A stretch of 64,000 nucleotides of DNA from Alphaproteobacteria bacterium (GTDB lineage: Bacteria; Pseudomonadota; Alphaproteobacteria; UBA828): NCBI GenBank assembly GCA_963422645.2, contig CAXXVO010000002.1, positions 1 through 64,000 of the forward strand, in the 5' to 3' direction. This document shows positions 7,186-56,400 of this stretch, piece after piece. The notes under the pieces are model-generated. The model was given only the letters and a program-made list of their open reading frames with translations. It had not been told where the DNA came from and made no database searches. The position numbers were made by a program, and so were the translations under genes. The number at the start of each line of letters is the position of its first letter. Positions within the stretch are counted from its first letter, which is position 1.

Positions 7186-7263
7186 GCCCGTGGCACTATC
7201 CGTCGGTGGCACCAACTTCAATCTGAAGGGTGGGAGAGAACGAGGCAGTTTGGAGGCAGCATT

Positions 7264-7962: not shown

Positions 7963-8066
7963 TGGAAACGAACGATGTATCTGATCCAGGCTTGGTGGTT
8001 CACGCCGCACCCAGGCGTTCAGCGCATCGCGGCGGCCCGTCGTCGGATCATTCCCGCTTCCCGGCC

Positions 8067-36010: not shown

Positions 36011-36155
36011 ATGGATGCGGACGTGGCTGGAACCCTTGGCGCAAGCGAACCTGGGCGTCCCTCGGCGTCCACGCCGCGTGGCAGAGCGTCCGGTATCAAC
36101 GCAGGGGATCAGCGGACAACACCAGGGCCATCGGAGCAGAGGCGGTGTGATGACC

Positions 36156-37725: not shown

Positions 37726-38289
37726 AGGAACGCGTGTTGATGACGGTCTAAACCCGCGTTTATTCGCTTTTTTGGGGGCGCGTGATTTTGGTGGCGGCGT
37801 GGTTGACGGGTTTATGTTCCCGATGAATTGACCGCTTCTGTTGTTGCTGGACCTGTGGGGAAGTGGTCAGGCGCGGAGCGGCTGTCCACTTGTCCACAGG
37901 CCTCTTGCCGTCGCCCGCTTTTCCCAGCTTCGCCCAACTTCGTACACCTGACATCGAGATCGCCGGGGGTAGACTCGGACCGCTGAGAACGATGCGGCGC
38001 CGGCCCCGTTTGCTTGCCAGCAAGTGCCGACGCCGCACCCCGCGAGCCATGCCGTGCACGGCTCAGATGCACAGTATCGTGCGGGATTTAGCGGGGGTCG
38101 AGCCCGTTATCATCGACCGCCGCGATGCAGAACCTCGGCCGCCTGTTCCACTGTCTGAACCGCTCCGGCTTTCCCGGAGGCTCCATCTTCAGACTTCCTG
38201 ACCTCGTGATGCTGGCTGTTCTGGGCAGCGTGCCGGGAACTCCTTGAATTCTGATACATTTCGGTTGTTTCAGGCGGTTTTTCGCTGAT

Positions 38290-40269
38290 CTCGGGCCATC
38301 CGTCGGCGCTCTATGACGAGGTGCTGGCGGGATGGCGCCGGCTGGCGCTGCAGGTCACGACCCAGGGTCTGGTGCGAACCGAGGTCGTCTGGTTCAACTA
38401 CGCCCCCGACCGGATGCATTGGGCCAGCCACGCAGGCCGGAACTTCACCGACCGCCAGCGCATCAAGCGCAAGGCAGCCAACTGGGGCCGGCGCTACCAG
38501 GCCTTGCCGCCGGGCGAACGCCTCGCCGTGCTCGCCGCCATGATGGCCGTCGAGGCCGAAGACACGTGACGGTGTCGCACTGGCACGAAGACCTCGCCGC
38601 CCGTAACGAGGCCTTCTGCTGCCTGAAGGAGCTTCTCGAGCCATCATCCCTCGCAACCACTGTCGTCGTTGCCGTCCGGGAATGGGGGCAGGGGCTGCTG
38701 CGATCAGCCACCGCGCTCGCCCGGGAAAATGCCGCACTCGAGCAGGAGAACGCGGCCCTGCGCGAGCGCATCGCCGAACTCGAGCGCAGCGCGGCCCTCA
38801 ACAGCACCACAAGCAGCAAGCCCCCCGCCAGCGACGGGCTCAAGAAGAAAAGCGGAGCCCAGAGGCGCACCCAAAGCCAGCGCGGAAAGTCCGGCGGGCC
38901 CAGTGGCGGCCAGCCCGGCCACAAGGGAACCACCCTCGCGCGGAGCGACAGCCCGGACCGTGTCGTCGATCACCACCCCTCCACCTGTTCCGGCTGTGGC
39001 GTCGAGCTCTCGGACGCCGACCGGCAAGGCGCGCCCGCCTGTCGGCAGGTCTTCGACGTACCCGAGCCGCAGCCTCTCGAGGTCACCGAACACCGCGCCC
39101 ATCGCTGCCTCTGCGGCGCATGCGGCACGCTGACACGAGCCGCCTTCCCGCCGGGCGTCACCGCCCCGGTCCAGTACGGCCCTCGCATCACCGCTTGGGT
39201 GAGTTACCTGCTGTACGCCCAGTTCGTGCCCGAGAAGCGTCTGGCCGAACTCATGAGCGACATCTTCGCGGTGTCCATCTCCACTGCCACGATCGCCGCC
39301 ATGGGCCGGCGCACAGCGCAGCGCTTCGAGGGCTTCCTCGACCATGTCGCCGATCTGATCCGCACGCAGGCGCCGGTCAAGCACCTCGACGAGACCGGCC
39401 TGCGTATCGCCGCCCGTACCCGCTGGCTCCATGTGCTGTGCACCCCGTTGCTCACCGTCCTGCGCATCGGCGAGGGACGCGGCGATGTCGAAAAGAACCT
39501 GAAAGGCATCCTCGTCCACGACGACTTCGCCCCCTACTTCACCATCAAGGGCGTCCGCCACGGCGCCTGCAACGCACATCACCTGCGCGAACTCCAGGCC
39601 CTGATCGACATCGAGAAGGAGGAATGGGCGGCGAGCATGCACCGCCTGCTTCAGCGCGCGCGCAGGGCCGCCCGCTTCGCCCGTGAGAAAGACCGTCAAG
39701 TCCCCGCCTCCCTGGTGGCCCGCATCTCAAGGGCATGGGACCGTATCCTCGAAGAAGCCATCGCCTTCCATGAGGCCCAACCGCCGCTCCAGATCGCAAA
39801 GCGAGGGCGAAAGAAACGCCGCATCGGCCACAACCTCGCGCGCCGCCTTCAAAAGCATAAGGAGGGCTGCCTGCGCTTCCTCACCGACCTGCGCACGCCG
39901 TTCACGAATAACGAGGCGGAGCGTGACATCCGTATGAACAAAGTGCATGAGAAGATCTCAGGCGGCTTCCGCTCCCTGCAAGGCGCCTGCAACTTCGCCG
40001 GAATGCGCAGCGTCATCGTCACCGCTCGAAAGCAAGGCTGGAACATCCTGCAAATCCTGGCGCACCCGGAACCGATGCAGCTGATCCCTATACTGCGCTC
40101 CTGAACTTCTCCGGCTCATCCTGAGTATCGCTGTCCTCTCATCTTGTTCGCGACGCGGCGTTCATCATCCTCTCGCGCTCAAGAGAGTAGGCACCCCCGC
40201 GGCGTGGGGGCGTTGACGCAAAAGGAACTGGCTTGTTCCATAAGAGAGAGGGGGTACCTGGGCAGTTAC
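38290..40269 (+). mobile_element. Second, diverged MTase-carrying IS66 element: MTase 3' remnant (to 38569) and transposase 38566-40104
   Basis: MTase C-terminus 'RTEVVWFNY...RNFTDRQRIKRKAANW' as in the 10937-11605 gene; same GTGA coupling; TIR ACCTGGGCAGTTAC at 40269. Confidence 0.88.
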
Positions 40270-41236: not shown

Positions 41237-43750
41237 TTAGAGGTCCGGGAGGTAGTAGGCGACGAGCAATCTCGTGAGGATTTCGCCACGGAGCGCCAAA
41301 CGATCAACATCCTCTTTTGGCATGGCTGCGAAGTCGGTTGGGTAGTGCCGGACCTCGTCGCGTGTTGGGAGGTCCGCTGGAATCCAGGGCAAGGCATTGT
41401 CCTTCTGTCCGAGATAGGCCAACGCGAAGCCCGAGAGTTTTCCGTCGTCAGCAAAGTAGTGCAGGCGTTTTCGAGTAGCGTCCTGGACCTTGCGAAAGAC
41501 TGTGAGAAAGGACCGGTACATCCTAGTAGGCCAGCGGGTCGGGTAGCTGTCGGCGTCGAATAGGCCCGCGCCAGCGTCGCAACAAATGATGTACTCGGGG
41601 TCGAAAACATTCGTGCTGATAGAAGCTATCCGCCCAGGCTCCATCGGGTTAACGCCCAGATTCTCGAATACTCCACCATCGGTGAGCAGAACACGAGTCG
41701 GCGTACTGGTTTTCCCGTTCTTGACAAAGCGGTACTTGCGTTCAAGTGCAGGCAGAAAGACCGGATAGGCTGCCGAAGCGGCCACGGCATCGGCGACCAG
41801 AGCGTCTTCGGGGGCAATCGTTCCAAAACGCCAACAGCCGCTATGCCGACTTCCGAACCGGAATGCGGATCCGGTTCGCAGCTCGGTGGCATTGATAACC
41901 GTATCGAGCGATTCCCGGGAGACTTCGCGCACAATGGTATCGCCGAACATGGATTGAGCGATGACTTCCTTGAACGCCTCCGTGCGGCTGAACGTGCGCT
42001 CCACCGGCTGACTCACGCGATCAGGGTTGTTCGATGGGATCGCGACGCGAGCCAGGCGATGAAGTATGCGGGCGATGAAGCACAGACACGCGACAAAATG
42101 AACTCTGACAACCTTGCGGATGGAGCCCTGTAGAAACACCTGGCGAAAGATGTCGCGGTGAAGTCCTTTGTCCAGAAGCTGTAGTGCGCGCGCTTCAAAC
42201 TCCGGGAACGGATCGTCTGAATAGGCATACATTGCGGAGATCACAGAACCGCCAGACACACTCGAAATCACCTGGAGGCGATCAAGCAAATCCAGGTCGT
42301 GCAGAGCACGCAGACATCCCAGGTGAAACGCGATGGCGCGCGATCCCCCGCCGGAGAGCGCGAGCCCCACATTTCTCGGCTTCTGGAGGCGTGGCCCAAG
42401 CTGCGTCGTTGCTGCTGTGTTTCGTTCAATTCGAATGAAATTCTTGTCGGACAGTGTTGTCCTGAATGCATGCGCGCCAAGAATTGGATCGTCGGGATTC
42501 CCGGAGAGGATCAGGATCAAGCAGGTTCTTCGGGCGGAGACCGGGTCGGCTAGGAGCTGTGCGACGGCATCAATGTCGATATCGCTTGGGTGCGGCGAGG
42601 ACGAGGGGTGGGTATGCCAACTGCCGACGCAATCGACCGATCCGCGGAACCGGTCGCGCTTACTTTCGGCAGCCTCTATCATCCCTTTGACTCCGCAGGT
42701 GAAGTGCTCCTCGCTTGCGTCGCTGTCTGGCGGCGGTCCCTCCACCTCCGTGACCCAAAGCACGCCCGCGGCTTCGTTCAACTCACCAAATACCAGCCCG
42801 CCGGTCTCAATTCCTGGTCCCACCGTTCGCGCAGATCGTCTTGCCCATCCGCGCATTTCTCGCGCAGCAGTCGCAGATACCCGGACCGAATAGCCGCGCC
42901 CCTCGTCCCTGAGAGTATGTTCCGGGGGCCACGAAAACTCATGGACAGGTCCGGATTCTTCGCAAGTCCAGCCAAAGCCCGTGTGGCAGTCATCGGTCCC
43001 TTGGATCGCACGAGCGATAGAATTCAGCATGCGCGCTGACAGTCCTGCGAGATCGGCGTTGGAACCGATGAACGTCGGCTCCGAACAGCCAGGTTCTGGT
43101 TGAAATTCCTCGCCTGGCGCCGATCGCGGCCAGAAAGCCTGAAGCGGTCTCGCGAGCTGCGCACTTCGACACGCTTCGAGTTTGAGGCACCGAGTCAGGT
43201 CGAGCGTGCCGCCGCTATGGTTCCCTCGCGAAAGAGTAGCAATGCCGTTGGCGGCCTGACTGTCGATGGCGATGGATGCAATTGGAGGTCGCGTGTCCGG
43301 GGCGTCGCGTAGCACATGCTCCAGGGCCGTCCGAACCGCCATTGAGGCCGTGCAATCGAGCAGAAGGTCGACCATCGGAAGTGGATCGGCGCCTGTTACT
43401 CGTTGAATAAGGTCGCCGGTCGAAGCGACAGCTTCCAGATCGGGATCGATCCTTTTCAAGCGATCGGCCAGCGCGTGAGCCTTGAACCTTCCGATATCGG
43501 CGTCTTCAAAGCCTTGTCGTACTAGGAGACCGGGGGCGACCGTCTTGTTGTCTACAAGCTCTACCGTTCTGGCACCGGCCCGTACGACGCTTTCCGCCAC
43601 GTGGGTCCCTACAGCGCCGCATCCCCAAATCGCCACACGCTTACCGGAAAACCAAGCCATGGGGGATGCTTGATCCCGCCTCCTGGTGACCTCAGGACGC
43701 ATTTCCCTGACTCTGCACCAACCCACATCGGCCAAGACCGACCATTCCAC
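41237..43750 (-). CDS. ThiF/E1-like + JAB + patatin-like phospholipase fusion (probably the C-terminal part of an E2-E1-JAB-patatin protein)
   Basis: GCGAVG, 'LVRQ', 'LDCTA', 'EPGCSEPTF' (Cap2-type catalytic Cys); ETGG...WHTHP..PSDID; patatin LSGGGSRA, SVSGGS, DGG. Confidence 0.88.
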   Translation of the reverse strand: MEWSVLADVGWCRVREMRPEVTRRRDQASPMAWFSGKRVAIWGCGAVGTHVAESVVRAGARTVELVDNKTVAPGLLVRQGFEDADIGRFKAHALADRLKRIDPDLEAVASTGDLIQRVTGADPLPMVDLLLDCTASMAVRTALEHVLRDAPDTRPPIASIAIDSQAANGIATLSRGNHSGGTLDLTRCLKLEACRSAQLARPLQAFWPRSAPGEEFQPEPGCSEPTFIGSNADLAGLSARMLNSIARAIQGTDDCHTGFGWTCEESGPVHEFSWPPEHTLRDEGRGYSVRVSATAAREMRGWARRSARTVGPGIETGGLVFGELNEAAGVLWVTEVEGPPPDSDASEEHFTCGVKGMIEAAESKRDRFRGSVDCVGSWHTHPSSSPHPSDIDIDAVAQLLADPVSARRTCLILILSGNPDDPILGAHAFRTTLSDKNFIRIERNTAATTQLGPRLQKPRNVGLALSGGGSRAIAFHLGCLRALHDLDLLDRLQVISSVSGGSVISAMYAYSDDPFPEFEARALQLLDKGLHRDIFRQVFLQGSIRKVVRVHFVACLCFIARILHRLARVAIPSNNPDRVSQPVERTFSRTEAFKEVIAQSMFGDTIVREVSRESLDTVINATELRTGSAFRFGSRHSGCWRFGTIAPEDALVADAVAASAAYPVFLPALERKYRFVKNGKTSTPTRVLLTDGGVFENLGVNPMEPGRIASISTNVFDPEYIICCDAGAGLFDADSYPTRWPTRMYRSFLTVFRKVQDATRKRLHYFADDGKLSGFALAYLGQKDNALPWIPADLPTRDEVRHYPTDFAAMPKEDVDRLALRGEILTRLLVAYYLPDL

Positions 43751-43758
43751 GACCGCAA

Positions 43759-44655
43759 CTATCGCTGCACAGCCCGTTGTGCTGGATCATCGGCTGACGA
43801 CGAGACATTCAGCTCTCGCAGCTTGTCTGCGTCGGCAGTAGCGATTTCCCATACTGCGAGATGCTGAAGGGCTCGACCGCCCGGGTCTATTCGGCGCATC
43901 GGGGTACCGAGCACTACGGCCAGCGGGGTCACGGCGCCGCTGTTTCGCGCGTACAGCCCGAGTTGGCGGATGAACGGACCGTAGTCGAGACCGTGAGATT
44001 CCAGCTCTTTCAATAGGGAGTGGACAGTCTTTGGGTATTCGAAAGGCAGGTTCCTATGGAGCAAGATTGCGGGAGCGAAGTGGGCCGGCAGTTCATGACC
44101 ATGCTCCTGCCAGCCGACGATTTCGGTGCGATGGTGTCGTTCACGTAGTTCCGCCAACCCGAACCAAGGCGAGTCGTCAACCGGAGGAGTATCCGCCCTC
44201 GGCACAAATAAGCGGTCAACGATTGGATAGGCGACCGGCGGATGGAGTGGCGCGTCGTCGGGATCGAGGTTGTTGACTGCTGCGTCACGTATCCAGGAGT
44301 CTAACCGCTTGACAAAGCCGTACATCCCGTTTTCCGGGCGCCAGTCGGCGGAACTCCCGTAGAGGCAGAGTTGCCTCCGCCACTGGACGTGATTGAAGCC
44401 GGAGAAGCGAACATGCGGAGTCACGACCAGTGGATGCTCGAACGGGAAGGTAGGAGGTACGAGCACGCAGAAAGCCTCACGTGCTCGCACCGGTAGCCCA
44501 TCCTCGCCCCGCTCCAGGCCGTCGAATCGAATGCTTATCTCGAACAGGCGATAGGCGTCGACAAGCTGAGTGGCTTCGTAGAGCTGTACGGTGCCGTCCG
44601 AGGCATCCGCAATCTCCCTAAGCTGTTCCCAGGCGAGTTCGAAGGCATCGGCCAT
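43759..44655 (-). CDS. E2/UBC-like domain protein (N-terminal half of a Cap2-like fusion; likely frameshift at ~43770)
   Basis: 'VPPTFPFEHP...HVQWRRQLCLY....WRP....GFVKRLDSW' UBC-fold pattern with Cys. Confidence 0.75.
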   Translation of the reverse strand: MADAFELAWEQLREIADASDGTVQLYEATQLVDAYRLFEISIRFDGLERGEDGLPVRAREAFCVLVPPTFPFEHPLVVTPHVRFSGFNHVQWRRQLCLYGSSADWRPENGMYGFVKRLDSWIRDAAVNNLDPDDAPLHPPVAYPIVDRLFVPRADTPPVDDSPWFGLAELRERHHRTEIVGWQEHGHELPAHFAPAILLHRNLPFEYPKTVHSLLKELESHGLDYGPFIRQLGLYARNSGAVTPLAVVLGTPMRRIDPGGRALQHLAVWEIATADADKLRELNVSSSADDPAQRAVQR

Positions 44656-45779
44656 CAGGCCCGGCCGTACGTGTGAGCACTTTCGGGAGCTTCGTTTGAG
44701 CCCTTCGCTGCATCGGCGGCTTCCGAAGCGGTCATGGCGGCGGTCGCCACGCCGGCGAGCACGATCTTTCCATCCTTAAGTTCAGCCATGATCGGCTCGT
44801 CCTGATCCATTGTGCAAAGAAAGGACTCGGTGGTCGACTCGTACTGCGTCTTGGCCTTTGCATGGGGAGGGTTGTCACCGGCCTTGTTGGAGGACGGTAC
44901 CGTATTGGAGCTGGATATGACCCGATTGGGTTTCAAAGACGCCTTCTCCATTTCCTCAACGATGTGCTTCTTGAGCTTCTCCTCGTCGTCCCCTTCCTCC
45001 TTCCAGTACATCGCGGCCTTTGAGCAGTGGTGCGGTGCCAGCAGCACGTTCCATGCGAGATCGTCGTCTTCGTTGACGCCAAATATTCTCTTGATGATCG
45101 GGTAGGAAAGATCACCGAGGAGCAGCGCGCGCAGTATCTTGTCTCCGTCGTAAAGCGTGACCTGCATGCCGAGGCTCGTGTCGTTCCGCTCGCCGGCGTC
45201 ATCGTCCTTGAACGGGGCATGGACAAATGCCCGGAACTTGTCAGACACGTCCTTTTCGTCAATCGTGGTCACTTCGTTACCCGGTATCGTCAACCGATCT
45301 TCCGGAAAATCCTTGTAATCGTCCTCTTCCAGCAACTCCGAGTAGCCGAAAATACGCACGCGGTCGCCGGCGCCTGGATCGCCCTTGGCCTCGATCGTCT
45401 TCTTGACGCGCCGTTCCGCCTCCTTCTTGAAATCCTTCGCGTCGTCGCAGAGATCCTTATTATACTCGGCAAAGATTCTGGGCGTGAACCACAACTCGCC
45501 AATATCTACCTTGTCGAGGAGGTCCGAGAAACCCCGGCAATGGTCCTGATCAGGGTGAGTCAGAGCAAACACGGCCAGGTACGGTCGTCCATTGACCTTG
45601 GGCAACCGTTCTGAGAGCTCATCGACAACGGCCCAGCTGGCATCGTCGTCGTCGTCGGACTTTTGCAGATGATTGAGATCAACCTGCAGATACGTCTTCG
45701 AGTCGACAACAATGGATGTGCTGTCGCCATTTGCCACCGGCCAGAAGACCAGTCCGCGGTCAGGAAGTTCGAAGGCCAT
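44655..45779 (-). CDS. Metallo-beta-lactamase-fold hydrolase (ComEC/Rec2-like) with a C-terminal tail ending HTYGRA
   Basis: 'VANGDS', THPDQDH, 'NDTS', LLGD, APHHCS; low-complexity Ala-rich tail. Confidence 0.88.
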   Translation of the reverse strand: MAFELPDRGLVFWPVANGDSTSIVVDSKTYLQVDLNHLQKSDDDDDASWAVVDELSERLPKVNGRPYLAVFALTHPDQDHCRGFSDLLDKVDIGELWFTPRIFAEYNKDLCDDAKDFKKEAERRVKKTIEAKGDPGAGDRVRIFGYSELLEEDDYKDFPEDRLTIPGNEVTTIDEKDVSDKFRAFVHAPFKDDDAGERNDTSLGMQVTLYDGDKILRALLLGDLSYPIIKRIFGVNEDDDLAWNVLLAPHHCSKAAMYWKEEGDDEEKLKKHIVEEMEKASLKPNRVISSSNTVPSSNKAGDNPPHAKAKTQYESTTESFLCTMDQDEPIMAELKDGKIVLAGVATAAMTASEAADAAKGSNEAPESAHTYGRA

Positions 45780-45874
45780 GTTTCATGCTCCGTTTGGTTT
45801 TGGTTTTCGTGTTTGGCAAGGTTGATGCAGTGCTGACTTGAACGCGGTCTAATGGTTTCGGGAAGCAAAGATCA

Positions 45875-47755
45875 TCATCGTACACACCGTGTGACAAACC
45901 CATTGCCGCCGCGTGCTGTAAGCAACGACACGCCATCTTCGATGTTTGTTTGAAAGACTTGTCGAGCTACTTTGCCGTACAGCTTGACTGCCTTTGCGTC
46001 TGGATGCCCGTATTGATTGTCGACCCCGGCGCTGATCAAGACCGTGTCCGGGGACACAAGTAGCGCCATTTTGGGATGAGCCGCATTCTTTGAGCCGTGA
46101 TGCGGGGCACTCAAGACGTCGGAAGAAAGACTATTTCCGAACAATCTGGTTAACCGCTTATGCACATGGCTCCGGTTCGATCAACATGCTGTAGGTAAGG
46201 GGTTTTGCATTGGTGGCGATGCGGAAGAGCGAGCGGAAAGCAGCGTGGCGGGTTTTGCGGCGGTTGAAGCGAAAGGCGAACTCATCGAGATAGGCCTGCA
46301 GATGCTTGCGGCGCAGCCCGTGGTAGACGCCTCGCGCCCATCCTTTGAGGTTGGAGAAGACTTGGTGGATCCACGGCAGGACGAGGTGAGCGGCGGTCTT
46401 CCCGACGACATGGACATTGTGGCGATCGGCGGGGACCGCAGCGTAGCCGGACCAGCCGTCGGTTTTCGCGATGGCGTCGGGATCGGCGGCGGTTTCGACG
46501 AAGTGTCCGAGGTCGGCGGCGCCGTAGGAGGAGATTTCGGCCAGCCGCAGGCGGCCCGGGATGGTTCCATCCCCCAGTTCGATGGCGCCGACGATGAGCA
46601 TCTTGCCGTCGTGGCTGCGTCCTTGCCCTCCGGTGGGAGGATCGTCTTTGGTCCGGAATGGAAGGCTGGCCTCGTCGATTTCCACCAGGCCCGACAACGG
46701 GTTGCGCTCGGGGTCGACCATGCTGGCGCGCAGCTTGTGGGCGAGCAGCCAAGCGCTGCGGTAAGAGCCGATACCGAGCTGTTTCTGGAGCTGCAGGGCA
46801 GAGATGCCGTTGGAGTGGGTCGCCATCAGGTAGGCGGCCCAGAACCAGACGGTGAGCGGCAGCTTGCTGGCGTGCAGGATCGTCCCGGCCGTCACCGAGG
46901 TCTGCCGGCGGCAGCCGGCGCACTCGAAGGTGTGTGCTTTTCTGCGCAGCGCCCATCCCTTTTCATGGCCGCACGCGGGACAGACGAAGCCGTCCGGCCA
47001 GCGCATTTCGATCAGCCAGGCGGCGCAGGCGTCATCGTCCGGGAACATGTGCTGGAAGGCGAGGAGGCTGTCGGCGACCTGTTTCATGTGGTGGCTCCGT
47101 CGGCAGGAACGTATAGGCAACATTCTACCCGTTCTCCCGCCCTAACCTCAACCTCAACATCTGGTGGCAAACTCTCGCGACCGGAGCCATGTGCATAAGC
47201 GGTTCTGGTTATTGTGTCCCAGCGGTCGTTTTCCGTATCTCCCGTTATCAGATAAGGAAACCCATTCCCGCCAATTCCCGACAACTTGAGGACTATGCTA
47301 CAGTTGTTGGAATTATCCATGTCTTCACTATGCGGAGAAAACAGCTCATAGGAAAAATACTTGGAAAGCCCATTCAGTTTTCGCGAATGGAGGTCCAACC
47401 GTACCGAGAGCTTCTTTAGGGGCTTTCCTGTATTCCTTCGCCGGCGCTCATGCTTGTTGATAACCTTGAACACGTCGGTGGCATTATCGGTATCCTTGTA
47501 ATACTTCGGATACATGATCCAATTGGGTTTGTACTCTCCCAGAATGTTGTCAACCCCATACGGGTCAGCATGGTCGTTATCGAACCCTGTCAATACGAGG
47601 CCCGCTAAGTCCTGATTGCGGAGAAACACCTGCAATTGCTTCTCGATTGCTTTAGCGTGTTCGTCGGGCCAGCGCGAATCGACGATCACGGCTTCTCCGC
47701 GGTGGCGGATGGCGATCAACTCACCCTGTCCTACGTATACCGTCAGCGTCTGCAT
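45875..47755 (-). pseudogene. MBL-fold (ComEC/Rec2-like) hydrolase interrupted by IS1595
   Basis: 'VGQG', TGFDNDH, NNCS, ITGD, APHHGS, YGHP; removing the IS and one TSD restores in-frame ...WDTITR-LFGN... Confidence 0.88.
46153..47203 (-). mobile_element. IS1595-family element (tnp ~46158-47087)
   Basis: TIR ACCGCTTATGCACATGGCTCCGG; 8-bp TSD TCTGGTTA; CPAC..CAGC, VEIDE, TDGW, 'YLDEFAFRFNRR'. Confidence 0.95.
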
Positions 47756-47757
47756 TG

Positions 47758-48696
47758 CTATTGCCCACTCCGTTCGCTGATGGCCCAATACAGCGATTGG
47801 TTCAATTCTCTCTCGAACGCACTCACCGCCTGTGCCGCAGACCCGAACTGCCGTCCGCTGAAGTCCTCGTAGACCCCTGCGCACACGCTTGGCAGCTTCT
47901 TGGCCAGAACTTGGTAATAGGAAGCCTCTCCGTCCTCCGATGTGTCTATTTCGGGGACCGTGACATCTATCGATGACCCGTCAACCAGTTCCAGCTCTCC
48001 CTTCCAATACAGAGTGCCGGCGCGTTTCGACCAGTACGGCTGAAGCGACGGGAAGAGGTCTGGAATGGTCGCACTATCCCTGGTCCGGACTTCCTTGCTG
48101 TGCCCCGCCTCTGTCTTGCTCAGCTCCGGCCTCGATCCAAGGGGCCAAACGGGTGCGTCTCTCGTAAGGGTGACTTTCGCGGGTTCGACCTCGTAAACGG
48201 CATCGTCACCCCGTAACAGGATGTAGTGCCTGACGCTGTAGCGTGACGCCGCCTCTCCACCAGCCAGCCGGGAAACGACGAGTAGTGCATAAAAGAAATC
48301 AAGGTTGTGCTTTTCGTGATTCACTATCCTTCTGTAGGTTGCAATGTCGCCGCCGCTGAGGTTTGGAAATCCATTCACATGATGTGTGTGCCAATTGCCA
48401 AGATGCTCAACTTCAGGGCGCGCGCTCTCGATCTGGCGAAATATCTCCGCTTGGTAGTCGCCGTCCTGGAAGAAACTTGTGGTGGACCTCCGCGCATTCG
48501 GTCCAGCCTCGATGACACCGGTAACCGTGACCTCCAATGAGCCATCGGCGCAGCGCCGAAACCGTCCTACGATCCGCCCACCCGTCTCGTCATGGTCATA
48601 ACGATCGCAGTCATCGAAGATCGACTCCAGTACCAGCGAAGGGATCGATAGCGTAGCGTTGGCATCCTTTAGGTCGCTATTCATTGGAACCTCCAC
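47758..48696 (-). CDS. JAB/MPN (JAMM) metallo-isopeptidase with a C-terminal extra domain
   Basis: ETGG...GNWHTHH....LSGGD JAMM motif; ~110-aa C-terminal extension. Confidence 0.88.
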   Translation of the reverse strand: MEVPMNSDLKDANATLSIPSLVLESIFDDCDRYDHDETGGRIVGRFRRCADGSLEVTVTGVIEAGPNARRSTTSFFQDGDYQAEIFRQIESARPEVEHLGNWHTHHVNGFPNLSGGDIATYRRIVNHEKHNLDFFYALLVVSRLAGGEAASRYSVRHYILLRGDDAVYEVEPAKVTLTRDAPVWPLGSRPELSKTEAGHSKEVRTRDSATIPDLFPSLQPYWSKRAGTLYWKGELELVDGSSIDVTVPEIDTSEDGEASYYQVLAKKLPSVCAGVYEDFSGRQFGSAAQAVSAFERELNQSLYWAISERSGQ

Positions 48697-49519
48697 AAAC
48701 TAGGCAACCCTCCTGCCGATGCAGGGTGATTCTTTGCAGCTCGAAGCTCTTGCTGAATGGATGTATCGGTCGATTTCCCCAAACCACGTAATTTTCCGGG
48801 ATAGCGGGAAGAAACGCTGGCCGTTGTGGGGCCAGCCGAGCCAAAGCGTCCATCACATAGCGCACGTGAAAAAGCGTGATGAACCCGATGTCTACCGCGA
48901 GGCCTGGGGAATCCTTTATCTCTTGAGGATCCAATCCGTACATTTGCTCCCGGTCTTCTTCGGAAGCGAGATCAATCTCCCTGACACCGTCTCGGAATTT
49001 AGTTCGTTCGAGAACACCCTCCAGACAAGCAAGACACCCACTCTCGCCCGGACGATAACCAAACACCTCTCCGCCAATCCCGCGGGTGAACACTTTTCCG
49101 ACAACGAATGGTGTTTCATTTCGAACACACAATTCGTTCATTTGAAATCGTGTCGGATCATTGTCGGTGGCAAGTACGACGATGTGGGAGCGTTGGACCT
49201 CACTCTCCAAGCCATGCCACTGCATCAGATCTTCTTCGACTTTCAGTACAGAAATATCTGGGTTTCGATCCTTGAGTACGTCTTCCAGTGCATCAACCTT
49301 CTTGCGACCGACAAATCGAAGTCCGCAAACATGCCGAATCACATTTTCGGATTTCATCACGTCTTTATCGATCAACGTGAAGTGTTTGACGCCTGACATG
49401 ACAAGTTGGAGCGCAACCTGGCCCCCGCCAGACCCGCAACCTGCGATGAGTACACGGGATTCGGCGAAGGCCTCGACGTCAAACAGACCTTCAATTCTCG
49501 CAAATAGGTTTTCGTGCAA
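48677..49519 (-). CDS. ThiF/MoeB/E1-like adenylyltransferase
   Basis: GCGSGG, 'IDKD...ENVIRH', 'KKVDAL', 'ATDN', Zn motifs CLAC and CLVC; TTG start directly after the upstream stop. Confidence 0.9.
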   Translation of the reverse strand: MHENLFARIEGLFDVEAFAESRVLIAGCGSGGGQVALQLVMSGVKHFTLIDKDVMKSENVIRHVCGLRFVGRKKVDALEDVLKDRNPDISVLKVEEDLMQWHGLESEVQRSHIVVLATDNDPTRFQMNELCVRNETPFVVGKVFTRGIGGEVFGYRPGESGCLACLEGVLERTKFRDGVREIDLASEEDREQMYGLDPQEIKDSPGLAVDIGFITLFHVRYVMDALARLAPQRPAFLPAIPENYVVWGNRPIHPFSKSFELQRITLHRQEGCLVCGGSNE

Positions 49520-49520
49520 T

Positions 49521-50048
49521 TCAGGTGCCCTCCCGCTCGGGCCAATTGCCGGTAGTGGACCACAATGCATAGCCGCTTAGCCATCGCCGACACAGTTTCA
49601 AGGTATGAACCACATCGTGTCGCCCGGGATTCCAGGTTTCCATGGCGCCAAAAATGCAAAGAGAGCCGTCAAGCCAGAGATGAGGAGATGATGGGTCTAT
49701 CGGATCGGCTGTAACCACCGGGGACTTGTTCGGATACCCGTGGGGTAGCGTGATGCATAAACGGATATCCTTCTCTTGGCCTGGTTCAGTAAGAATTAAT
49801 TGTATTTCCCTATTCTCCGTTATAGATACGCGAAATGGTTCACTTTCGGCAGCAAGACCATCAAGTTCCTGCGATATCCTGTTCGGGGAGATATCAGGCA
49901 GGAAGACGGAAATGGGCACCAGACATGCCTTTTGTTGTCCGCTTCTCTCTACAACATAGGCACGACCGCGTACCGCGACGTCATCCAGAATTTCTCCGGG
50001 TCGGCTGCGGAGATCCATCATGGATAGAGGTTGGAAGTCGATGTGCAT
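49521..50048 (-). CDS. Phd/YefM-like DNA-binding domain fused to an E2/UBC-like domain
   Basis: N-terminal 'SMMDLRSRPGEILDDV...YVVERSGQQKACLVPI'; C-terminal 'ITLPHGYPNKSP...PHLWLDGSLCIF....WNP'. Confidence 0.75.
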   Translation of the reverse strand: MHIDFQPLSMMDLRSRPGEILDDVAVRGRAYVVERSGQQKACLVPISVFLPDISPNRISQELDGLAAESEPFRVSITENREIQLILTEPGQEKDIRLCITLPHGYPNKSPVVTADPIDPSSPHLWLDGSLCIFGAMETWNPGRHDVVHTLKLCRRWLSGYALWSTTGNWPEREGT

Positions 50049-50054
50049 GGCAGA

Positions 50055-50429
50055 TCAATGGGCAATGCCCGCACCGGGCCAACGACGCTGAACGCAATAG
50101 ACTTCGTATTTGGCTAGCCATTTGGCCGCTCGCGCAATGACGAAGCGGAGGTCATGACGTCCAGGGTTCCAAAAATTCGGATGCAAGTAGCAAAGTTGAT
50201 TATCGGTGTACCGATGAGGGGAGGGTTGCAGCGCAGGTGTCCGGACGAAAACCTGGGGCATCGCATTCGGGTACGACTGCGGGAACGTTACTGCCAGTGT
50301 GTAGTAGCGGAGCGACGTCTGTAGCGCGACCAAAGCCATCAATCCGCCTGCGTTGGTGGGGTGCGCCTCGACGTAGTCGAAGTGCTGCTGCGCGGTCGCA
50401 ATATCCCGTTGGATTCTTGTCAGATTCAC
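50055..50429 (-). CDS. E2/UBC-like conjugating enzyme
   Basis: 'VTFPQSYPNAMPQV...PHRYTDNQLCYL....WNP...VIARAAKWL'; GTG start overlaps the stop of the 64-aa ORF. Confidence 0.8.
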   Translation of the reverse strand: MNLTRIQRDIATAQQHFDYVEAHPTNAGGLMALVALQTSLRYYTLAVTFPQSYPNAMPQVFVRTPALQPSPHRYTDNQLCYLHPNFWNPGRHDLRFVIARAAKWLAKYEVYCVQRRWPGAGIAH

Positions 50430-50620
50430 CGCGAGTCTCCACGGGCGCTGTATTCGCCTCCTAGGTCTTCCCTCATCGTGATCGGCTTGCGATAGCCGCT
50501 TTCCGCAGCAGCGCTTCCGCCGAGCTCCCGCACCTCGCCGTTGGGCAGGATTTCGATCGGGGAGTCCTCCTCCTCGTCCAAGATCGCCTCGAGTTCGTGG
50601 ATTGTCGGTTTTCTCGCCAT
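50426..50620 (-). CDS. 64-aa acidic peptide with an LGG motif; first gene of the operon
   Basis: AGGTG RBS, ATG, GTGA coupling to E2; MARKPTIHELEAILDEEEDSPIEILPNGEV...KPITMREDLGGEYSARGDSR. Confidence 0.7.
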   Translation of the reverse strand: MARKPTIHELEAILDEEEDSPIEILPNGEVRELGGSAAAESGYRKPITMREDLGGEYSARGDSR

Positions 50621-50644
50621 TTCGCGTCACCTATGAGGATCGTG

Positions 50645-50682
50645 CGGTTATGATAGTTGTACAGTTCATAACCGGCTGTCAA
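50645..50682 (-). promoter_or_regulatory. Putative promoter/operator of the ubiquitin-like operon
   Basis: TTGACA (-35, 50677-50682); perfect IR CGGTTATGA-N12-TCATAACCG (50645-50674) enclosing TGTACA; -10 box is not canonical. Confidence 0.6.
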
Positions 50683-51219: not shown

Positions 51220-52317
51220 GTGATGCTTGACTCGGACGTAATGGAAGGACAGCTGGTTGACGGGTTCCTGGAAGCCCTGCGGGAGCTCCCCGATGCGCAG
51301 GCGGAGGTCAGTGAGGCCGAACAGCCGGGCGGCCGCGATCGAGGACATGACGTCCAGGTTGACCTCCGGGTGGGTGGGAAGGCGGCCACCCTGCTGATTG
51401 AGATGAAGAAGGACGTATATCCCCGTGACGTGCGGCAGGTACTTTGGCAGCTCCGCGGCTCCGCACGGAGAAGGCCGCACCCGGAAGAAAAACGGGAAGC
51501 GGTGTTCTTCCTGATCGCCCGATCGATTTCACCTGGAGCCAAGGAGCTGTTGAGGAACGAGCGGGTCGGCTACTACGACAGCGGCGGCAGCCTGTTTCTG
51601 CCCGCCGGCAACATCTACGTGTATGTGGACAAGCCGCCCCCGAAAAGCCTGTCGCGGTCCATCCGTTCCGTGTTTTCGGGCCGTCGTGCGCAAGTGCTGC
51701 ACGCGGTCCTGCTGCGACATCGCGAGTGGTTCGGGGTGAATGACATCGCCAACCAAGCCCGGGTATCGCCCGCGACCGCCTCGCAGGTTCTGATGGAAAT
51801 GGAGAAGTTCGAATGGGTGGTGTCGCGTGGACAGGGGCCAGGAAAAGAACGCCATCTGCAAGAGCCAGGCGCCTTGCTGGATGCATGGGTGAACCAGCAG
51901 GCGGTGATGCGGCCGCTGTCCATGCGGCGTTACTTCGTGCCGTCGGCGGGCGCGGAAGGGCTGGTGGAGAAGTTCGCCGAGGTCTGCGCAGAGAGCAAGG
52001 CCGAATACGCGATCACTCACGAGGCGGCAGGGCAACGGTACGCGCCATTTCTGTCAACTGTCTCCCAGGTGCGTTGCCGGCTGCTGGAGGGCCCGGCAGC
52101 AGATCGGGGTCTTAGCGCAATTGATGCTCGATTCGTGGACCAAGGCGCGAACCTTGCGGTCATCGAGGTCAAGTCGCCGAGCGAGTTGCTGTTTCGCGAA
52201 TTCGTGAACGGGATCTGGCTGGCAAGTGCTGTGCAGGTCTACCTCGACCTGATGCGCAGCGAGGGCCGCGCTAGGGAAATGGCGGAGCACCTGCGCCACG
52301 AAAGGATCGGCTTCTGA
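51220..52317 (+). CDS. AbiEi-like (type IV TA antitoxin) transcriptional regulator
   Basis: Central wHTH 'VNDIANQARVSPATASQVL', 'PGALLDAW', C-terminal 'VQVYLDL...GRAREMAEHL'. Confidence 0.72.
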   Translation: MMLDSDVMEGQLVDGFLEALRELPDAQAEVSEAEQPGGRDRGHDVQVDLRVGGKAATLLIEMKKDVYPRDVRQVLWQLRGSARRRPHPEEKREAVFFLIARSISPGAKELLRNERVGYYDSGGSLFLPAGNIYVYVDKPPPKSLSRSIRSVFSGRRAQVLHAVLLRHREWFGVNDIANQARVSPATASQVLMEMEKFEWVVSRGQGPGKERHLQEPGALLDAWVNQQAVMRPLSMRRYFVPSAGAEGLVEKFAEVCAESKAEYAITHEAAGQRYAPFLSTVSQVRCRLLEGPAADRGLSAIDARFVDQGANLAVIEVKSPSELLFREFVNGIWLASAVQVYLDLMRSEGRAREMAEHLRHERIGF

Positions 52318-53231
52318 TGGTGAAGCCCGCGACGTTCGACGGCTACAGCGATCGGTACACGGTCGAATGCGAGCGGGTCCTCGTAACTCTGCTGCGCGGA
52401 CTGGGCCCGTGGAAGGAGTCCGTGTTTCTGGTGGGCGGACTGACTCCCAGATACTTGGTGGCGGCTCGGCCGCCGGAAGTGCCGGCGCATGCCGGCACGC
52501 TCGACGTGGACATCGTCATCGATCTGCAGATCCTGGCTGACACTGCGGGCTATCGCACGCTTGAGGAGAACCTGCGAGCGATGAGGTTCGAGCGGTCGAT
52601 GAACGAGAGAGGCCAGAGGCTTTCATGGCGGTGGCAGACTCGCACCGAAAGCGGTGCGCTGATGGTGGTCGAGCTGCTCGCCGACGCGCCGGACATCGCT
52701 GGTGGCAGGGTCGAACCGCTGCCTACGGAAGGGAACATTTCCGCGCTCAACATCCCGCATTCGTCCATTGTCTTCGAAATGCACCAGGTCGCGGAGATTC
52801 GGGCAGAGCTCCTGGGCGGTGGGGGAAACGCCGTCGAAGTGGTGAGGCACGCCGATTTGGTGAGCTTCACTTGCTTGAAGGCTTTCGCCTTCGACCAGCG
52901 CTTCGAGCGGAAGGACGCCCATGACCTGATGTATTGCATTGAACACGCGGAGCGAGGTCTCGACGGAGCCGCGTACATGTTCCGCGAGGCCTTGGGGGGC
53001 AAGCACGGCGCAGTGATTTGGGACTGTTTGTCAATTCTTCGCAATCGTTTCGCAGGGGACGGCGAAGTCGAGGGGTATCGGAAAGACGGTCCGGTAGCGG
53101 TGGCCCGCTTCGAACTGGGTGAGGGTGACGATGCTGGTCAGCGCGAAGCTCGGTTGCTGAGGCAGCGGGAGGTCAACAGCGTGATGGAGCAACTTCTGGG
53201 TCGGATCGCTTCGGAGGCGGCATGGCGGTAA
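52317..53231 (+). CDS. AbiEii-like nucleotidyltransferase (type IV TA toxin-like)
   Basis: 'LVGGL', 'GTLDVD', 'LKAFAF..R...KDAHDL'; coupled to the upstream gene. Confidence 0.72.
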   Translation: MVKPATFDGYSDRYTVECERVLVTLLRGLGPWKESVFLVGGLTPRYLVAARPPEVPAHAGTLDVDIVIDLQILADTAGYRTLEENLRAMRFERSMNERGQRLSWRWQTRTESGALMVVELLADAPDIAGGRVEPLPTEGNISALNIPHSSIVFEMHQVAEIRAELLGGGGNAVEVVRHADLVSFTCLKAFAFDQRFERKDAHDLMYCIEHAERGLDGAAYMFREALGGKHGAVIWDCLSILRNRFAGDGEVEGYRKDGPVAVARFELGEGDDAGQREARLLRQREVNSVMEQLLGRIASEAAWR

Positions 53232-53426: not shown

Positions 53427-56400
53427 GTAACTGCCCAGGTCGTCTGATTTGTCATTTTGGGCCAGTGGATTGAGGCGTTTCTCGTTCGGAGTTGGTGGAA
53501 AGGGCTTGACGGGAATTTCGGGAAATGACTCAACAACGACATGAGCAATCCCGAGTCGCCGCGCGGCCCTTCGACGGGAGCAGCGCCCGAAACGCCCGCG
53601 CAGAAGATCGCCCGCCTGGAGGAGGAGAACGCCCGGCTTCGGGAGGAAAATGCCTGGCTTCGGCAGCAGAACGCGCGGCTGGAAGAGCAAGTCGCGCGTC
53701 TCGTCGAGCGCATCGAGGAGTTGGAGCGCCGTCTCGGCCTCAACAGCGGCAACAGCGGCAAGCCGCCTTCGAGCGATGGGCTGAGGAAGCCGAATTCGAA
53801 GCGGCGAACCCGAAGCCTGCGCGGCAAATCGGGCCGCAAGCCCGGTGGCCAGCCCGGCCACAAGGGCAAGACGCTGCGCCGCGCCGATCACCCGGATCGG
53901 GTGAAGGATCACGTCCCGGCTTCCTGCAAGGGATGCGGTTCGCCGCTTTCGGACGCGGCCAGGGCGGGAACGCCCGTCGCCCGCCAGGTGTTCGATCTGC
54001 CCGAGCCGAGCCCCCTGGAGGTGACCGAGCACCGGGCGCATGCCAAGTGCTGCGGGCATTGCGGGACGGTGACCCGGGCGGCGTTCCCCGACGGGGTGTC
54101 GGCGCCGGTGCAGTACGGCCCGCGCATTGCCGGGGTGGCGGTCTACCTTCAGCACGCTCACTTCCTGCCGGAGGATCGGCTGTCGCAGGTGATGGCCGAG
54201 CTCTTCGGCGCGCCGGTGACGGCTGCGACGTTGGCGACGATGAGCGAGAGGGCGGCCGAGCGGCTGCGGGACGCGGCCTTGCACATACAGGACCTGGCGG
54301 CGGGCACGGCGCGGGTGAAACACATGGACGAGACCGGCTTGCGGATCGGCGGTCAGACGCAGTGGCTTCATGTCCCAAGTTGGCACTTTTTCCGTTTGTT
54401 CGGGGCCGAATTGGCCAGGTTTTTCCGGCTGACACACCAGATATAGCGTTGACGAGAAGGGCACGCCCCTACATTTGCGATTGCCGTCTCGAACTCCCTT
54501 TGTAGTGCCAGGGAATGGTGGGTTTGCAGGATTTCCCTTGACCCCACCACCAAAGCCGACATATCTGAACCCGCCACGACCAAAACGTGCCGGGCGACAT
54601 GTTCATCAGGGCAACCAAGACCCACACTACCGAAGGCAAGCCGGTCCGCAGCCATCGCCTCGTGCTCTCGCAGCGCATCGGCGACAAGGTCAGGCAGCGC
54701 ACGCTTCTCAACCTCGGCACCGACTATCCGGTGCCGAAGGAGAAATGGCGCGAAGTTGCCGGACTCGCCGAGGCGCTGCTCAACGGCCGCCCGCCGCTGC
54801 TCGAAGCCGCGCCGGACGTGCAGGCCGCAGCCGAGGACATCGTCGCCAAGCTCAGGGCCAGGGGGTTCCGCCCCGAGGCGATACAGGAAGAGGCGCGCAA
54901 GCCCGACATCGCCACCGTCGACCTCGATACCCTGGAGCACGAGAACCCGCGCACGGTCGGCTGCGAGCGCCTGTGCCTCAAGGCCCTCGACGACCTCGGC
55001 TTCGCCGACATCCTCCACGGCCTCGATATCAAGGGCCGCGACGGGCGCATCGCCAGCGCGCTGATCGTCGCCAGGATGGTCCATCCCGCCAGCGAGCGTG
55101 ACACCAGCCGCTGGCTGCGCCGCGACAGCGCGACCGCCGAGCTCCTGGGGCTGGAGGGCGACCGCAAGGCGCTGCGGCGCAAGACGCTCTACCGCATCGG
55201 CGACCTGCTCTGGCGCCACCGGGCCGCCATTCAGCGGGAGCTGTTCAACCGCGAGCGCGCGCTGCTCGACCTGCCCGAAACGATCGCCTTTTACGATCTC
55301 ACCAATGTCCACTACCACGGCCACACCCACGGCCAGCTTCCCAGGTTCGGGCGCTCCAAGCAGAAGCGCGACGACTGTCCGCTGATCACGCTGGCGCTGG
55401 CGCTCGACGGCGCAGGCTTCCCGCGCAGTTGCGAGATCCTGCCGGGCAACGTGAGCGAGCCGGGCACGCTGGAGGACGCGCTGGTCAGGCTCGAGGCGGT
55501 GTGCGGCGGCACGGCGCCGAAGCCCACGGTGGTCATGGACGCGGGCATCGCCACCGAGGAGAACGTCGCGTGGCTGGGCGAGCAGGGCTACGACTGGATC
55601 GCGGTCAGCCGCGGCGCCAGGCCGCCGCTGCCCGAGGGCGGGCCCGAGGCTCTGCTGATCACCAGCGCGCGGCACGAGGTGCGCGCCTGGCGGCTTGCCA
55701 GCGAGGACGGCGAGGCGCGGCTCTACGTCGTCAGCGAGGGCAAGAAGAAGGCCGAGAACGCGATCATCGGCCTCAGGCGGAACCGCTTCGAGGCGGCGCT
55801 GGAAAGGCTCCATAGCGGCCTGCCGGTCAAGGGCCGCCTCAAGCGCTACGACAGGGTGCTGGAGAGCATTGGCCGTCTCAAGCAGCGCTTCTCCACCGTC
55901 GCCAGACACTACGAGGTCACGGTCGAGAAGGCGAAAACCGGCCCCAACGCCGCCGCCGTGCGCTTCAAGCGCAGGCCGCAATACGACGAGGCCGACGAGG
56001 GCGCCGGCGCCTATGTGCTGCGCACCAGCCACGTCGACTGGGATATCGAGACGATCCTGCGGACCTACTGGCGCATCACCGACATCGAGGCCACCTTCCG
56101 CAGCCTGAAATCCGAGCTCGGCCTTCGCCCGATCTGGCACCAGCTCGACCGTCGCATCGCGGCCCACCTGCTGATCGCCGTGCTGGCCTATCACGCCGTG
56201 CATCTGATCCGTACCCGACTGGCCGCGCGGGGCATCCACAAGTGCTGGGCATCGATCCGCGAGGGCATGCGGACCTGGGTGCGGATCACCACGCGACTGC
56301 GCCAGACCGACGGCACCTTGATCGTCAACCGCCAGGACACGCGCCCGGCCGCCGAGGTCGCCCAAATCTCCTCGGCGGCGGGTGTTGACCCCGCCATCCA

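Follow-up and report, generated by a model that had tools for sequence, protein, structure and literature searches.

What does a bacterial ubiquitination-like operon attach to its targets when it encodes neither a cyclase nor a β-grasp protein? To our knowledge, the substrate conjugated by known E1/E2/JAB systems of bacteria is either the tail of an enzyme itself, as in Type II CBASS (cyclic oligonucleotide-based antiphage signaling system), Pycsar, and 6A-MBL, or a folded β-grasp ubiquitin-like protein (Ubl), as in Bil and Bub. The question is posed by six genes in a 64,000-nucleotide (nt) stretch of alphaproteobacterial DNA (lineage UBA828; assembly GCA_963422645.2, contig CAXXVO010000002.1, positions 1 to 64,000; the whole stretch is called the window). 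An earlier note, made from the letters of the window alone, had proposed that these genes form a new conjugation pathway with a short acidic peptide in the substrate slot. At a probability of roughly 0.55, we favor the reading that the operon encodes a conjugation system resembling ubiquitination, self-contained and horizontally mobile, with a peptide tag and most likely directed against phages. Judged from its sequence, it is a conserved and unnamed system of the E1/E2/JAB conjugation kind, set apart by the peptide, a Phd-fused E2, a ComEC-like hydrolase of the metallo-β-lactamase (MBL) fold, and a swappable effector slot. The features of the operon are as follows (aa, amino acids; IS, insertion sequence).

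50426–50620, minus strand: acidic peptide gene, 64 aa, with AGGTG 6 nt before the ATG; proposed ubiquitin-like tag
50055–50429, minus strand: E2a, a 124-aa predicted minimal UBC-fold enzyme with a GTG start
49521–50048, minus strand: Phd-E2, 175 aa, with a Phd/YefM-like N-domain at about residues 5–43 and a second predicted UBC-fold domain at about residues 55–166
48677–49570, minus strand: E1, a 297-aa stand-alone adenylating enzyme of the ThiF/MoeB/MccB type
47758–48696, minus strand: JAB/JAMM metallopeptidase, 312 aa
47205–47755, minus strand: 5′ part of the gene for a ComEC-like MBL-fold hydrolase, reaching the IS insertion at about codon 183
46152–47204, strand not assigned: IS1595-family insertion sequence, 1053 bp, splitting the MBL gene
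46158–47123, minus strand: IS1595 transposase gene (DDE_Tnp_IS1595, E 5.7e-26)
45875–46151, minus strand: 3′ part of the MBL gene, with the APHHGS and GHP motifs

Conservation and enzymes of the operon

The layout of the open reading frames (ORFs) bears out the six co-oriented, overlapping or near-abutting genes read by the earlier note: they are tightly packed on the minus strand across 45875–50620, the TGA stop of the peptide gene shares bases with the GTG start of E2a in a GTGA overlap, and the ATG of the MBL gene (47755) lies 2 nt after the JAB stop. The E1 start codon is uncertain because orthologs begin about 15–20 codons later, and the true start may lie that much further in. The lower GC content that had been remarked on is also real (0.51–0.58 across 47000–50500 versus 0.62–0.70 in the flanks), and the MBL gene and its IS1595-family element had been placed correctly. 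The element ends in perfect 25-nt inverted repeats, a CTGGTT target duplication flanks it (46146–46151 and 47205–47210), and the insertion is apparently clean and recent; L001, a near-identical locus, carries an uninterrupted MBL gene. Because the IS breaks the MBL gene, the window copy of the operon, the only one in this genome, is probably crippled or disabled. Short contigs in RNA libraries match 50218–50581, 48806–48956, and 45800–45961 at 95–99% identity, and one of them bridges the peptide–E2a junction; the matches come from four runs that represent two data sets, each filed twice, DNA carry-over is possible for all of them, and stretches of the operon without coverage carry no information.

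Conserved synteny, on which the earlier proposal depended, was found in two collections. A scan with E1, covering one genome per species, returned 15 loci, which span six or more phyla or classes: Paracoccaceae, other Alpha- and Gammaproteobacteria, Binatia, Acidobacteriota, Verrucomicrobiae, and Limnocylindrales (Chloroflexota). The order peptide–E2a–Phd-E2–E1–JAB–MBL is kept in these loci, except where a contig ends and in a few loci that have decayed (L003, L015, and L011, whose MBL gene is frameshifted), and E2a, Phd-E2, and E1 are separate genes in all of them, as they are in the metagenome loci described below. No conserved extra gene was found in the 15 genome loci, nor any conserved upstream gene among the loci compared. 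The E1 proteins share 59–95% identity across phyla, which points to horizontal spread. The second collection was obtained from metagenomes with the peptide profile alone, which gave 287 confirmed stretches, the best 80 of which were kept; these are the closest relatives of the query, and the counts are silent on distant members. Taking in only contigs with room for the gene in question, E2a was present in 72/72 loci, Phd-E2 in 52/53, E1 in 42/42, JAB in 37/37, and both halves of the MBL in 30/31.

The two UBC-like domains proposed earlier pass a structural check by AlphaFold2 and Foldseek. The E2a model (predicted local distance difference test, pLDDT, 92.2) consists of a helix, four strands, and a long helix, with Rad6 and Ubc9 as its best Foldseek matches (E 2.8e-4, about 3e-4; TMq 0.62–0.65). 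The Phd-E2 model (pLDDT 89.6) shows a β-α-α-β-β N-domain followed by a UBC core, best matched by UFC1, the Vps23 UEV domain, and UbcH5; the E-values are about 2–3e-4 for both E2s. At the level of predicted structure, the UBC folds of both proteins are confirmed. In sequence searches, the PADLOC model for CBASS E2 matched E2a (9.3e-11) and Phd-E2 (7.6e-9). No E2 model in the Pfam library used for the window scan, which did not contain PF26395, matched either protein; PF26395, recorded on homologs of the E2s, is 'E2-CBASS' according to the Atlas (Pfam 38.1). The PADLOC 'Cyclase' matches cover the same region of the two E2s that fits the E2 models and only model residues 453–542 of 542, so that no cyclase gene is present among the six genes scanned with PADLOC, as had been claimed.

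A cysteine in an 'LC....WNP' motif had been ascribed to both E2s, and this holds fully for one of them. In E2a, the Cys of PHRYxxxx[LI]C-YLHPxxWNPGxH is invariant (12/12 sequences), whereas 5 of 12 genome loci have Ser in its place in Phd-E2. The 120 best-scoring database relatives of Phd-E2 comprise 114 with Cys, two with Gly, and one with Arg at this position, and three without the motif; the cysteine thus appears dispensable in some lineages. The N-domain of the window Phd-E2 matches PF02604 (Phd/YefM) at E 0.0059, with 16.8 bits versus a cut-off of 29.8. Its predicted secondary structure fits the Phd/YefM fold, many of the 667 database relatives of Phd-E2 (E≤1e-3) are recorded with both PF02604 and PF26395, and in the two Atlas clusters nearest to it 27–60% of members carry PF02604. 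No partner toxin gene for the Phd/YefM domain was found. Phd-E2 is probably an adaptor or a regulator.

E1 has a single ThiF domain (Pfam ThiF, E 1.3e-30), and the stand-alone enzyme with two CxxC motifs described in the earlier note is well supported by conservation: GCGSGG, R79, D136 (in ATDN), C179xxC182, and C289xxC292 are invariant in 13/13 sequences, as are C45, C82, and C148. The best solved relatives of its profile are MccB (1.4e-18), MoeB (1.9e-17), and ThiF (7.8e-16), followed more weakly by PaaA (1.7e-10) and Cap2 (8e-8). The JAB protein matches the PADLOC JAB model (1.5e-14), and the JAMM motif E...HxH...SxxD (E37, H103xH105, S114, D117), invariant in 13/13 sequences, upholds the isopeptidase call; the roughly 150-aa C-terminal extension of the protein is conserved but falls into no known family. 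The two halves of the MBL protein match the C-terminal MBL region of ComEC/Rec2 (TIGR00361) at 2e-11 and 5e-10, partial matches that lie far below the full-length cut-off of 190 bits. The DxDH, SPH, GDTE, HHGS, and GHP motifs are kept in the 10 intact MBL orthologs compared; the first HxH of the classic motif is missing.

No named system accounts for this gene set, in agreement with the earlier note. PADLOC 2.0 gave generic CBASS E2, E1–E2, and JAB matches, and the 6A-MBL models of NCBIfam 20.0 remained below threshold: NF058523 scored 57.1 bits on E1 and 45.6 bits on JAB versus 320, with no match to the E2s, and NF058524 scored 17.1 bits on the 5′ part of the MBL versus 220. No description of the gene set, of LGGEY, or of PF26395 was found in the literature, where coverage of subscription papers was incomplete, so that a prior report is possible. 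None of rows 6a–6e of Iyer 2006 describes the operon's gene set. Type II CBASS with Cap2/Cap3 (row 6b) shares the E2 sequence family, a ThiF-type E1, a Cap3-like JAB, and a frequent patatin effector; however, the operon has no CD-NTase (a nucleotidyltransferase of the cGAS/DncV type), its E1 and E2 are separate rather than one Cap2 fusion, and it contains two E2 paralogs (one of them Phd-fused), a first-position peptide gene, and a core MBL. 6A-MBL (row 6a) also pairs an E2/E1/JAB module with an MBL-fold hydrolase, but that module is one triple-fusion protein and there is no peptide gene, and the operon's MBL is ComEC-like.

Two systems with a dedicated modifier come closer in logic. As described in the available part of PMC11601596, Bub Type I (BubAB plus BubCD) has a modifier–E2 fusion released by a JAB peptidase, a minimal homodimeric E1 without an obvious catalytic Cys, and Ser at the E2 catalytic position, the residue also found in some Phd-E2s. 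Its modifiers, in contrast, are one to three β-grasp domains, its E2s carry Ser throughout, unlike E2a, and JAB and E1 are separate genes only in the operon. No operon protein matched DUF6527/BubE in Pfam or NCBIfam. Bil (BilABCD), as far as the accessible descriptions go, resembles the operon in its separate modifier, E2, JAB, and E1 genes and offers a precedent for a tag placed on phage structural proteins; it differs in that BilA is a β-grasp Ubl, BilD is a multidomain E1 (IAD-AAD-CYS) as opposed to a 297-aa single-domain enzyme, and neither an MBL nor a second E2 is described.

The acidic peptide as candidate tag

The peptide contains 15 D+E versus 8 K+R. Its gene was found in 13 of the 15 genome loci; it is missing at L003, lost along with half of E2a, and truncated by a contig end at L013. 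The 13 sequences share 23 invariant columns, grouped in the blocks PTIxELExIL, PIEILPNGE[VI]R, and KP[LI]TMRE[DN]LGGEY, after which 0–7 variable residues follow. Third codon positions change most in the peptide frame in 7/7 ortholog comparisons (for example 17/10/33), a substitution pattern that marks the ORF as a real gene. The peptide profile, searched against 1.84 billion representative proteins, matched 532 representative clusters at E≤1e-3, 239 of which pass E≤1e-10. GGEY is present in 138 of the best 150 relatives, and 143 of them have [LMIVF]GG followed by a tail of 2–155 aa; 15 of these 143 stop exactly at ...GGEY and none stops at GG. The peptide had been described as ending in LGG; the LGG itself is conserved, but the conserved end is LGGEY.

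The peptide belongs to no family in Pfam, NCBIfam, PADLOC, or PHROG, and the Atlas search with it gave no usable match. Nothing therefore marks it as a Bil-type β-grasp modifier, as it matches no family and its pLDDT is low outside the contacts with E1 modeled below. As part of what we take to be the best explanation, we lean slightly toward a modifier slot that holds a short, acidic, largely unfolded, non-β-grasp peptide of about 55 residues. Natural gene fusions bear on this point: among 90 longer peptide homologs, 11 carry an E2-CBASS domain and are in-frame peptide–E2a fusions, and 10 of the 11 read ...LGGEY, then 1–4 residues, then E2a sequence. One fusion cluster has four members and another three, and one fusion protein has two tandem copies of the peptide ahead of the E2.

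A predicted complex of two E1 chains and the peptide gave an ipSAE of 0.72 (0.69–0.77 in three runs) versus 0.02 for the best control; the 0.72 mark was reached by 58/80 solved complexes and 2/110 mismatched pairs. At least 36% of the contacts are common to the runs, and the partner has a pLDDT of 51–56. In the model, peptide residues 21–28 (the ILPNGE strand) pair with E1 residues 277–287 of one protomer, and residues 46–60 (PITMREDLGGEYSAR) contact G46–G49, N76, R79, D136, and the loop 158–168 of the other, so that the peptide tail is predicted to reach into the ATP site in trans. A title cited in PMC11601596 reports binding in trans for UBA5–UFM1. The proposed placement of the 64-aa acidic peptide in the substrate, or 'ubiquitin', slot is supported by this model together with the peptide–E2 fusions. 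The closest solved relatives of the E1, the peptide-adenylating MccB and the homodimeric MoeB and ThiF, also speak for it.

From gene order, folds, catalytic motifs, conservation, fusions, and phage homologs, we infer a route whose every biochemical step, target, and defense role is conditional. The JAMM peptidase would cut at the LGGEY site, removing the variable tail or freeing the peptide from a fused E2. The homodimeric ThiF-type E1 would bind the peptide in trans, with the ILPNGE strand docked on the C-terminal strand of one protomer and the KPLTMRExLGG tail entering the ATP site of the other, and would adenylate the new C-terminus. The invariant Cys of E2a would take the peptide as a thioester and hand it to an amine on the target; E2a may receive the peptide straight from the adenylate. 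Phd-E2 could serve as a UEV-like adaptor with a non-essential Cys and as a likely autoregulator whose Phd/YefM domain would bind the repeated motifs of the leader. The ComEC-like MBL hydrolase and a seventh gene (patatin lipase, small membrane protein, or second MBL system) would form the effector arm.

The peptide might instead not be a tag. The fused E2–E1 of Type II CBASS, Pycsar, and 'MBL' pathways is described, in the available part of PMC11601596, as conjugating the signaling enzyme itself. By similar logic to CBASS or 6A-MBL, the MBL or seventh-gene effector would be conjugated via its own C-terminus, and the peptide would be a pseudo-substrate, an inhibitor, or an antitoxin-like brake that phage copies keep on. 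The MBL is indeed a core gene, and the E2s are of the E2-CBASS family; however, the MBL C-termini are not conserved (...AANA, ...TTLIP, ...TRLVR), and the separate E1, E2, and JAB genes are unlike Cap2. Although a Phd/YefM domain next to an acidic, labile-looking peptide recalls toxin–antitoxin logic and stand-alone phage copies of the peptide fit an anti-defense brake, the modeled tail lies in the adenylation site as a substrate would, and the recurrent peptide–E2 fusions and the tandem-peptide precursor mirror polyubiquitin and the BubAB precursors. On balance we find this explanation unlikely.

The relatives of E1 invite a different alternative. MccB, MoeB, and ThiF are its top solved matches, with PaaA also among them, and in QbsE/QbsD a JAB protein trims two residues after GG, so the operon could belong to a small-molecule pathway that makes a microcin C-like peptidyl-nucleotide precursor or uses a ThiS/MoaD/QbsE-like sulfur carrier trimmed by JAB. 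MccB/MccA and PaaA, the closest solved relatives by profile, do act on an unfolded ribosomal peptide; yet they work with no E2 or JAB, on a heptapeptide ending in Asn in the microcin C case, toward an antibiotic and not a conjugate. The operon conserves two E2 genes, one with an invariant catalytic Cys, and its peptide has 55 or more residues, conserved blocks far from the C-terminus, and natural fusions to E2. Moreover, no rhodanese, sulfurtransferase, exporter, immunity, or biosynthetic family was found among the six proteins or the neighbors conserved in at least three loci, and we consider such a pathway very improbable. The QbsE/QbsD siderophore operon is row 4a of Iyer 2006.

Several points weigh against the reading of the operon as a peptide-conjugating system. 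The complex score is the model's own confidence, obtained from shallow 13-row alignments; the pass may reflect memory of solved E1–Ubl complexes, and the peptide is modeled at low confidence (pLDDT 51–56) outside the interface. EY is conserved as strongly as GG, so that the JAB could cut after G55 or after Y57 and more than one residue is a candidate for adenylation; if a Gly is the donor, members ending in ...GGEY would still need trimming. The thioester step on E1 is doubtful because the enzyme lacks an invariant Cys behind its first CxxC, the place where the Cys of ThiF itself presumably lies. The variable MBL C-termini give no hint of a conjugation target, and the role assigned to Phd-E2 is a guess. 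Several of the fusions are singletons on short contigs, and singleton status weakens the individual cases of the fused or extended forms P0162, P0227, P0246, and P0229. The Phd-E2 profile, finally, had no match (E≤1e-10) in a sample of 400 other genomes drawn from the phylum to which the window belongs, a rarity that also counts on this side.

If the peptide is nonetheless the tag, E1/E2/JAB machinery can use a short unfolded peptide, which bears on the evolution of ubiquitin-like tagging and on the minimum of the Ubl fold that suffices for an E1; a 55-residue tag with its own ligase and protease set could also serve as a protein-labeling tool.

Other architectures of the peptide, mostly known from single sequences (P0272, P0306, P0221, P0229, P0246), include tandem peptides before E2 in a polyubiquitin-like arrangement, a Phd domain fused ahead of the peptide, a HAD-like domain ahead of it, and Cys clusters resembling zinc ribbons that precede or follow it.

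Effector slot, leader, and role

The slot after the MBL gene was scored wherever 900 nt or more were available for it, in 42 loci. It holds a patatin-like lipase in 12/42, a second MBL in 9/42, small membrane proteins of several families in about 15 of 42, another gene in 3/42, and none in 3/42. Anti-phage defense is probably the role of the operon, and we regard this variable slot, together with the phage copies of the peptide, as a candidate pair of defense and counter-defense.

Pup offers a precedent for a tag of a different purpose. It has about 60 residues, is acidic and disordered, and carries a Gly-Gly-acidic motif at its C-terminus; the likeness to our peptide, also short, acidic, mostly disordered, and with a GG-E motif near its end, is one of description only. 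A Pup-like system would act on proteins of the host cell, tagging them under stress so that they are degraded or regulated, with no connection to phages, and no phage-sensing domain was evident in Pfam, PADLOC, and NCBIfam scans of the operon proteins. The earlier note, too, had left room for a stress-responsive role. We give this host-directed alternative little credence. Pup is attached via a Glu side chain by PafA, an enzyme resembling glutamine synthetase, with no E1, E2, or JAB, and no protease or unfoldase partner is conserved with the operon. Housekeeping of this kind also sits poorly with a patchy, horizontally spread distribution (E1 identity across phyla and the empty sample of same-phylum genomes, above), with an IS-rich island beside a named defense system, and with exchangeable patatin, membrane-protein, and MBL genes typical of abortive-infection effectors.

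The family of conjugation operons proposed here comprises hundreds of clusters, most of them from environmental metagenomes; large as it is, it is rare in sequenced genomes. The database relatives of Phd-E2 are almost all metagenomic, the few named ones are called 'hypothetical protein' or 'ubiquitin-protein ligase', and the Atlas cluster names read 'Phd/YefM antitoxin'; it is because of this automatic annotation that the family has been hidden.

The region upstream of the peptide gene is also conserved.

50621–50682, minus strand: promoter and leader, with TTGACA at 50682–50677, a CGCACGA motif, and an AGGTG ribosome-binding site

The leader contains the inverted repeat CGGTTATGA-12 nt-TCATAACCG at 50674–50645. 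A simple sigma-70 promoter scan did not call the operon promoter. Among 84 distinct upstream regions, TTGAC[AG] occurs in 52, TGCAAT/TACAAT in 39, and GCACGA in 23 (shuffled means 4.8, 3.4, and 1.1, respectively), and other leaders carry short tandem motifs of the ACAATT type just before the ribosome-binding site. Because no separate regulator gene is conserved among the neighbors, the Phd/YefM domain of the second E2 would be the best candidate for binding these leader motifs. Within the 120 nt upstream of the peptide gene in the 84 loci, an 8–11-nt unit, of the GCACGA or ACAATT type depending on lineage, is repeated in 2–5 tandem copies just before the ribosome-binding site, in addition to the TTGACA and TGCAAT/TACAAT boxes. 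The leader is conserved across phyla; it may be an RNA element, or an array of operators to which the Phd domain binds.

Phage homologs and flanking genes

The peptide profile also matched 11 loci (L016–L026) on IMG/VR viral contigs. Ten of these 11 copies keep both the ILPNGE and the [RK][ED]NLGGEY blocks, and L026 keeps only the first; the blocks retained are those modeled on the host E1. E2, E1, JAB, and MBL were not found within 7 kb of the phage peptide genes where the contig reaches (tblastn, E<1e-4). Five phage records, four of them 94–100% complete (CheckV), were searched whole and gave no ThiF and no E2 match; one of the five had a sub-threshold JAB-like match far from the peptide gene. 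When the same viral collection was scanned with the E1 profile nothing was found, and the Phd-E2 profile returned two loci in which only the Phd part matched.

In 4 of the 11 phage loci (L019, L022, L023, and L025), the peptide gene directly follows a portal gene or an ORF in the portal position, within the head module, and in the remaining seven it lies among small genes. In L019, the portal (phrog_156, E 2.5e-112) is followed by a gene for a 356-aa protein with the peptide as its N-terminus (6995–8062); neither the peptide nor this protein has a family in PHROGs. In L022, the order is portal, peptide (7001–7171), phrog_322, scaffold (phrog_8865), and major head protein (phrog_283). For L023 and L025, the portal is assigned by position and size only, the ORF having no PHROG match in L025 and lying outside the scan in L023. 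The peptide gene of L025 is given here.

3036–3227 of L025: phage peptide gene

A tree of the peptide (221 rows, 58 columns) does not resolve the relationships; viral rows, 10 in number, are dispersed over it (9 changes, versus a shuffled mean of 9.9, with 56/500 shuffles as low), and the tree gives no direction of transfer between phages and bacteria.

Retention of the E1-docking blocks by phage copies fits a decoy or a trigger, or a phage-intrinsic origin of the bacterial tag. We tentatively entertain, though with clearly less confidence than the conjugation reading itself, that the tag is a stripped-down 'mini-ubiquitin', composed of an E1-docking strand and an LxxxLGG-type tail, that is common to bacteria and phages. 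The phage copies would then jam the host E1/E2 machine as decoys or set it off as triggers; in the opposite direction, the tag of the bacteria may have been domesticated from a peptide of the phage head module and may direct conjugation to virions during assembly. If the mini-ubiquitin were real, it would imply a ubiquitin-like arms race whose weapon is a peptide of 55 residues, and would add to β-grasp Ubls and Pup a third chemical class of protein modifiers. A further point weighs against any tagging role: because phage copies keep the motifs without any E1 or E2, it is conceivable that these motifs serve a phage-intrinsic function, and they may be unrelated to conjugation.

A second co-oriented system, which the earlier note had not recognized, lies directly downstream of the operon, in its variable seventh-gene slot.

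41237–45779, minus strand: second system, made up of the three genes below
44655–45779, minus strand: MBL of the 6A-MBL type (NF058524, 290.2 bits versus a cut-off of 220)
43759–44655, minus strand: Prok-E2_A protein (Pfam)
41237–43750, minus strand: E1-JAB-patatin fusion, 837 aa, with Pfam ThiF, Prok-JAB, and a C-terminal Patatin domain

NF058523 (cap2_3) is covered jointly by the products of 43759–44655 and 41237–43750 (80.9 and 253.2 bits, each below 320), and on these matches the second system is a variant of the named 6A-MBL system in which the usual E2-E1-JAB protein is split. It is a variant of row 6a in Iyer 2006; a review (PMC13276650) credits the 6A-MBL name and anti-phage activity to a 2024 study. 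A second MBL, Prok-E2_A, and E1-JAB(-patatin) recur after the operon in L001, L003, and L047.

Upstream of the operon in the Acidobacteriota contig, at L011:1740–4746 (minus strand), lie a patatin-like gene and two nucleotidyltransferases that look, by eye, to be of the CD-NTase type; the whole looks like a CBASS-like cluster by eye. In the window, two overlapping ORFs of 365 and 304 aa occupy 51220–53231 (plus strand) directly upstream of the operon. They matched no Pfam family and gave only a weak LacI-type helix-turn-helix match; their assignment as an AbiE-like pair was dropped, as it had no Pfam support. Transposase genes surround the island at 34809–40104, 53541–54446, and 62401–63807: two are of the IS66 family, one is a truncated IS66-family gene, one is DDE_Tnp_1 (with a DruA-like N-terminal region), and one is DDE_Tnp_1_4.

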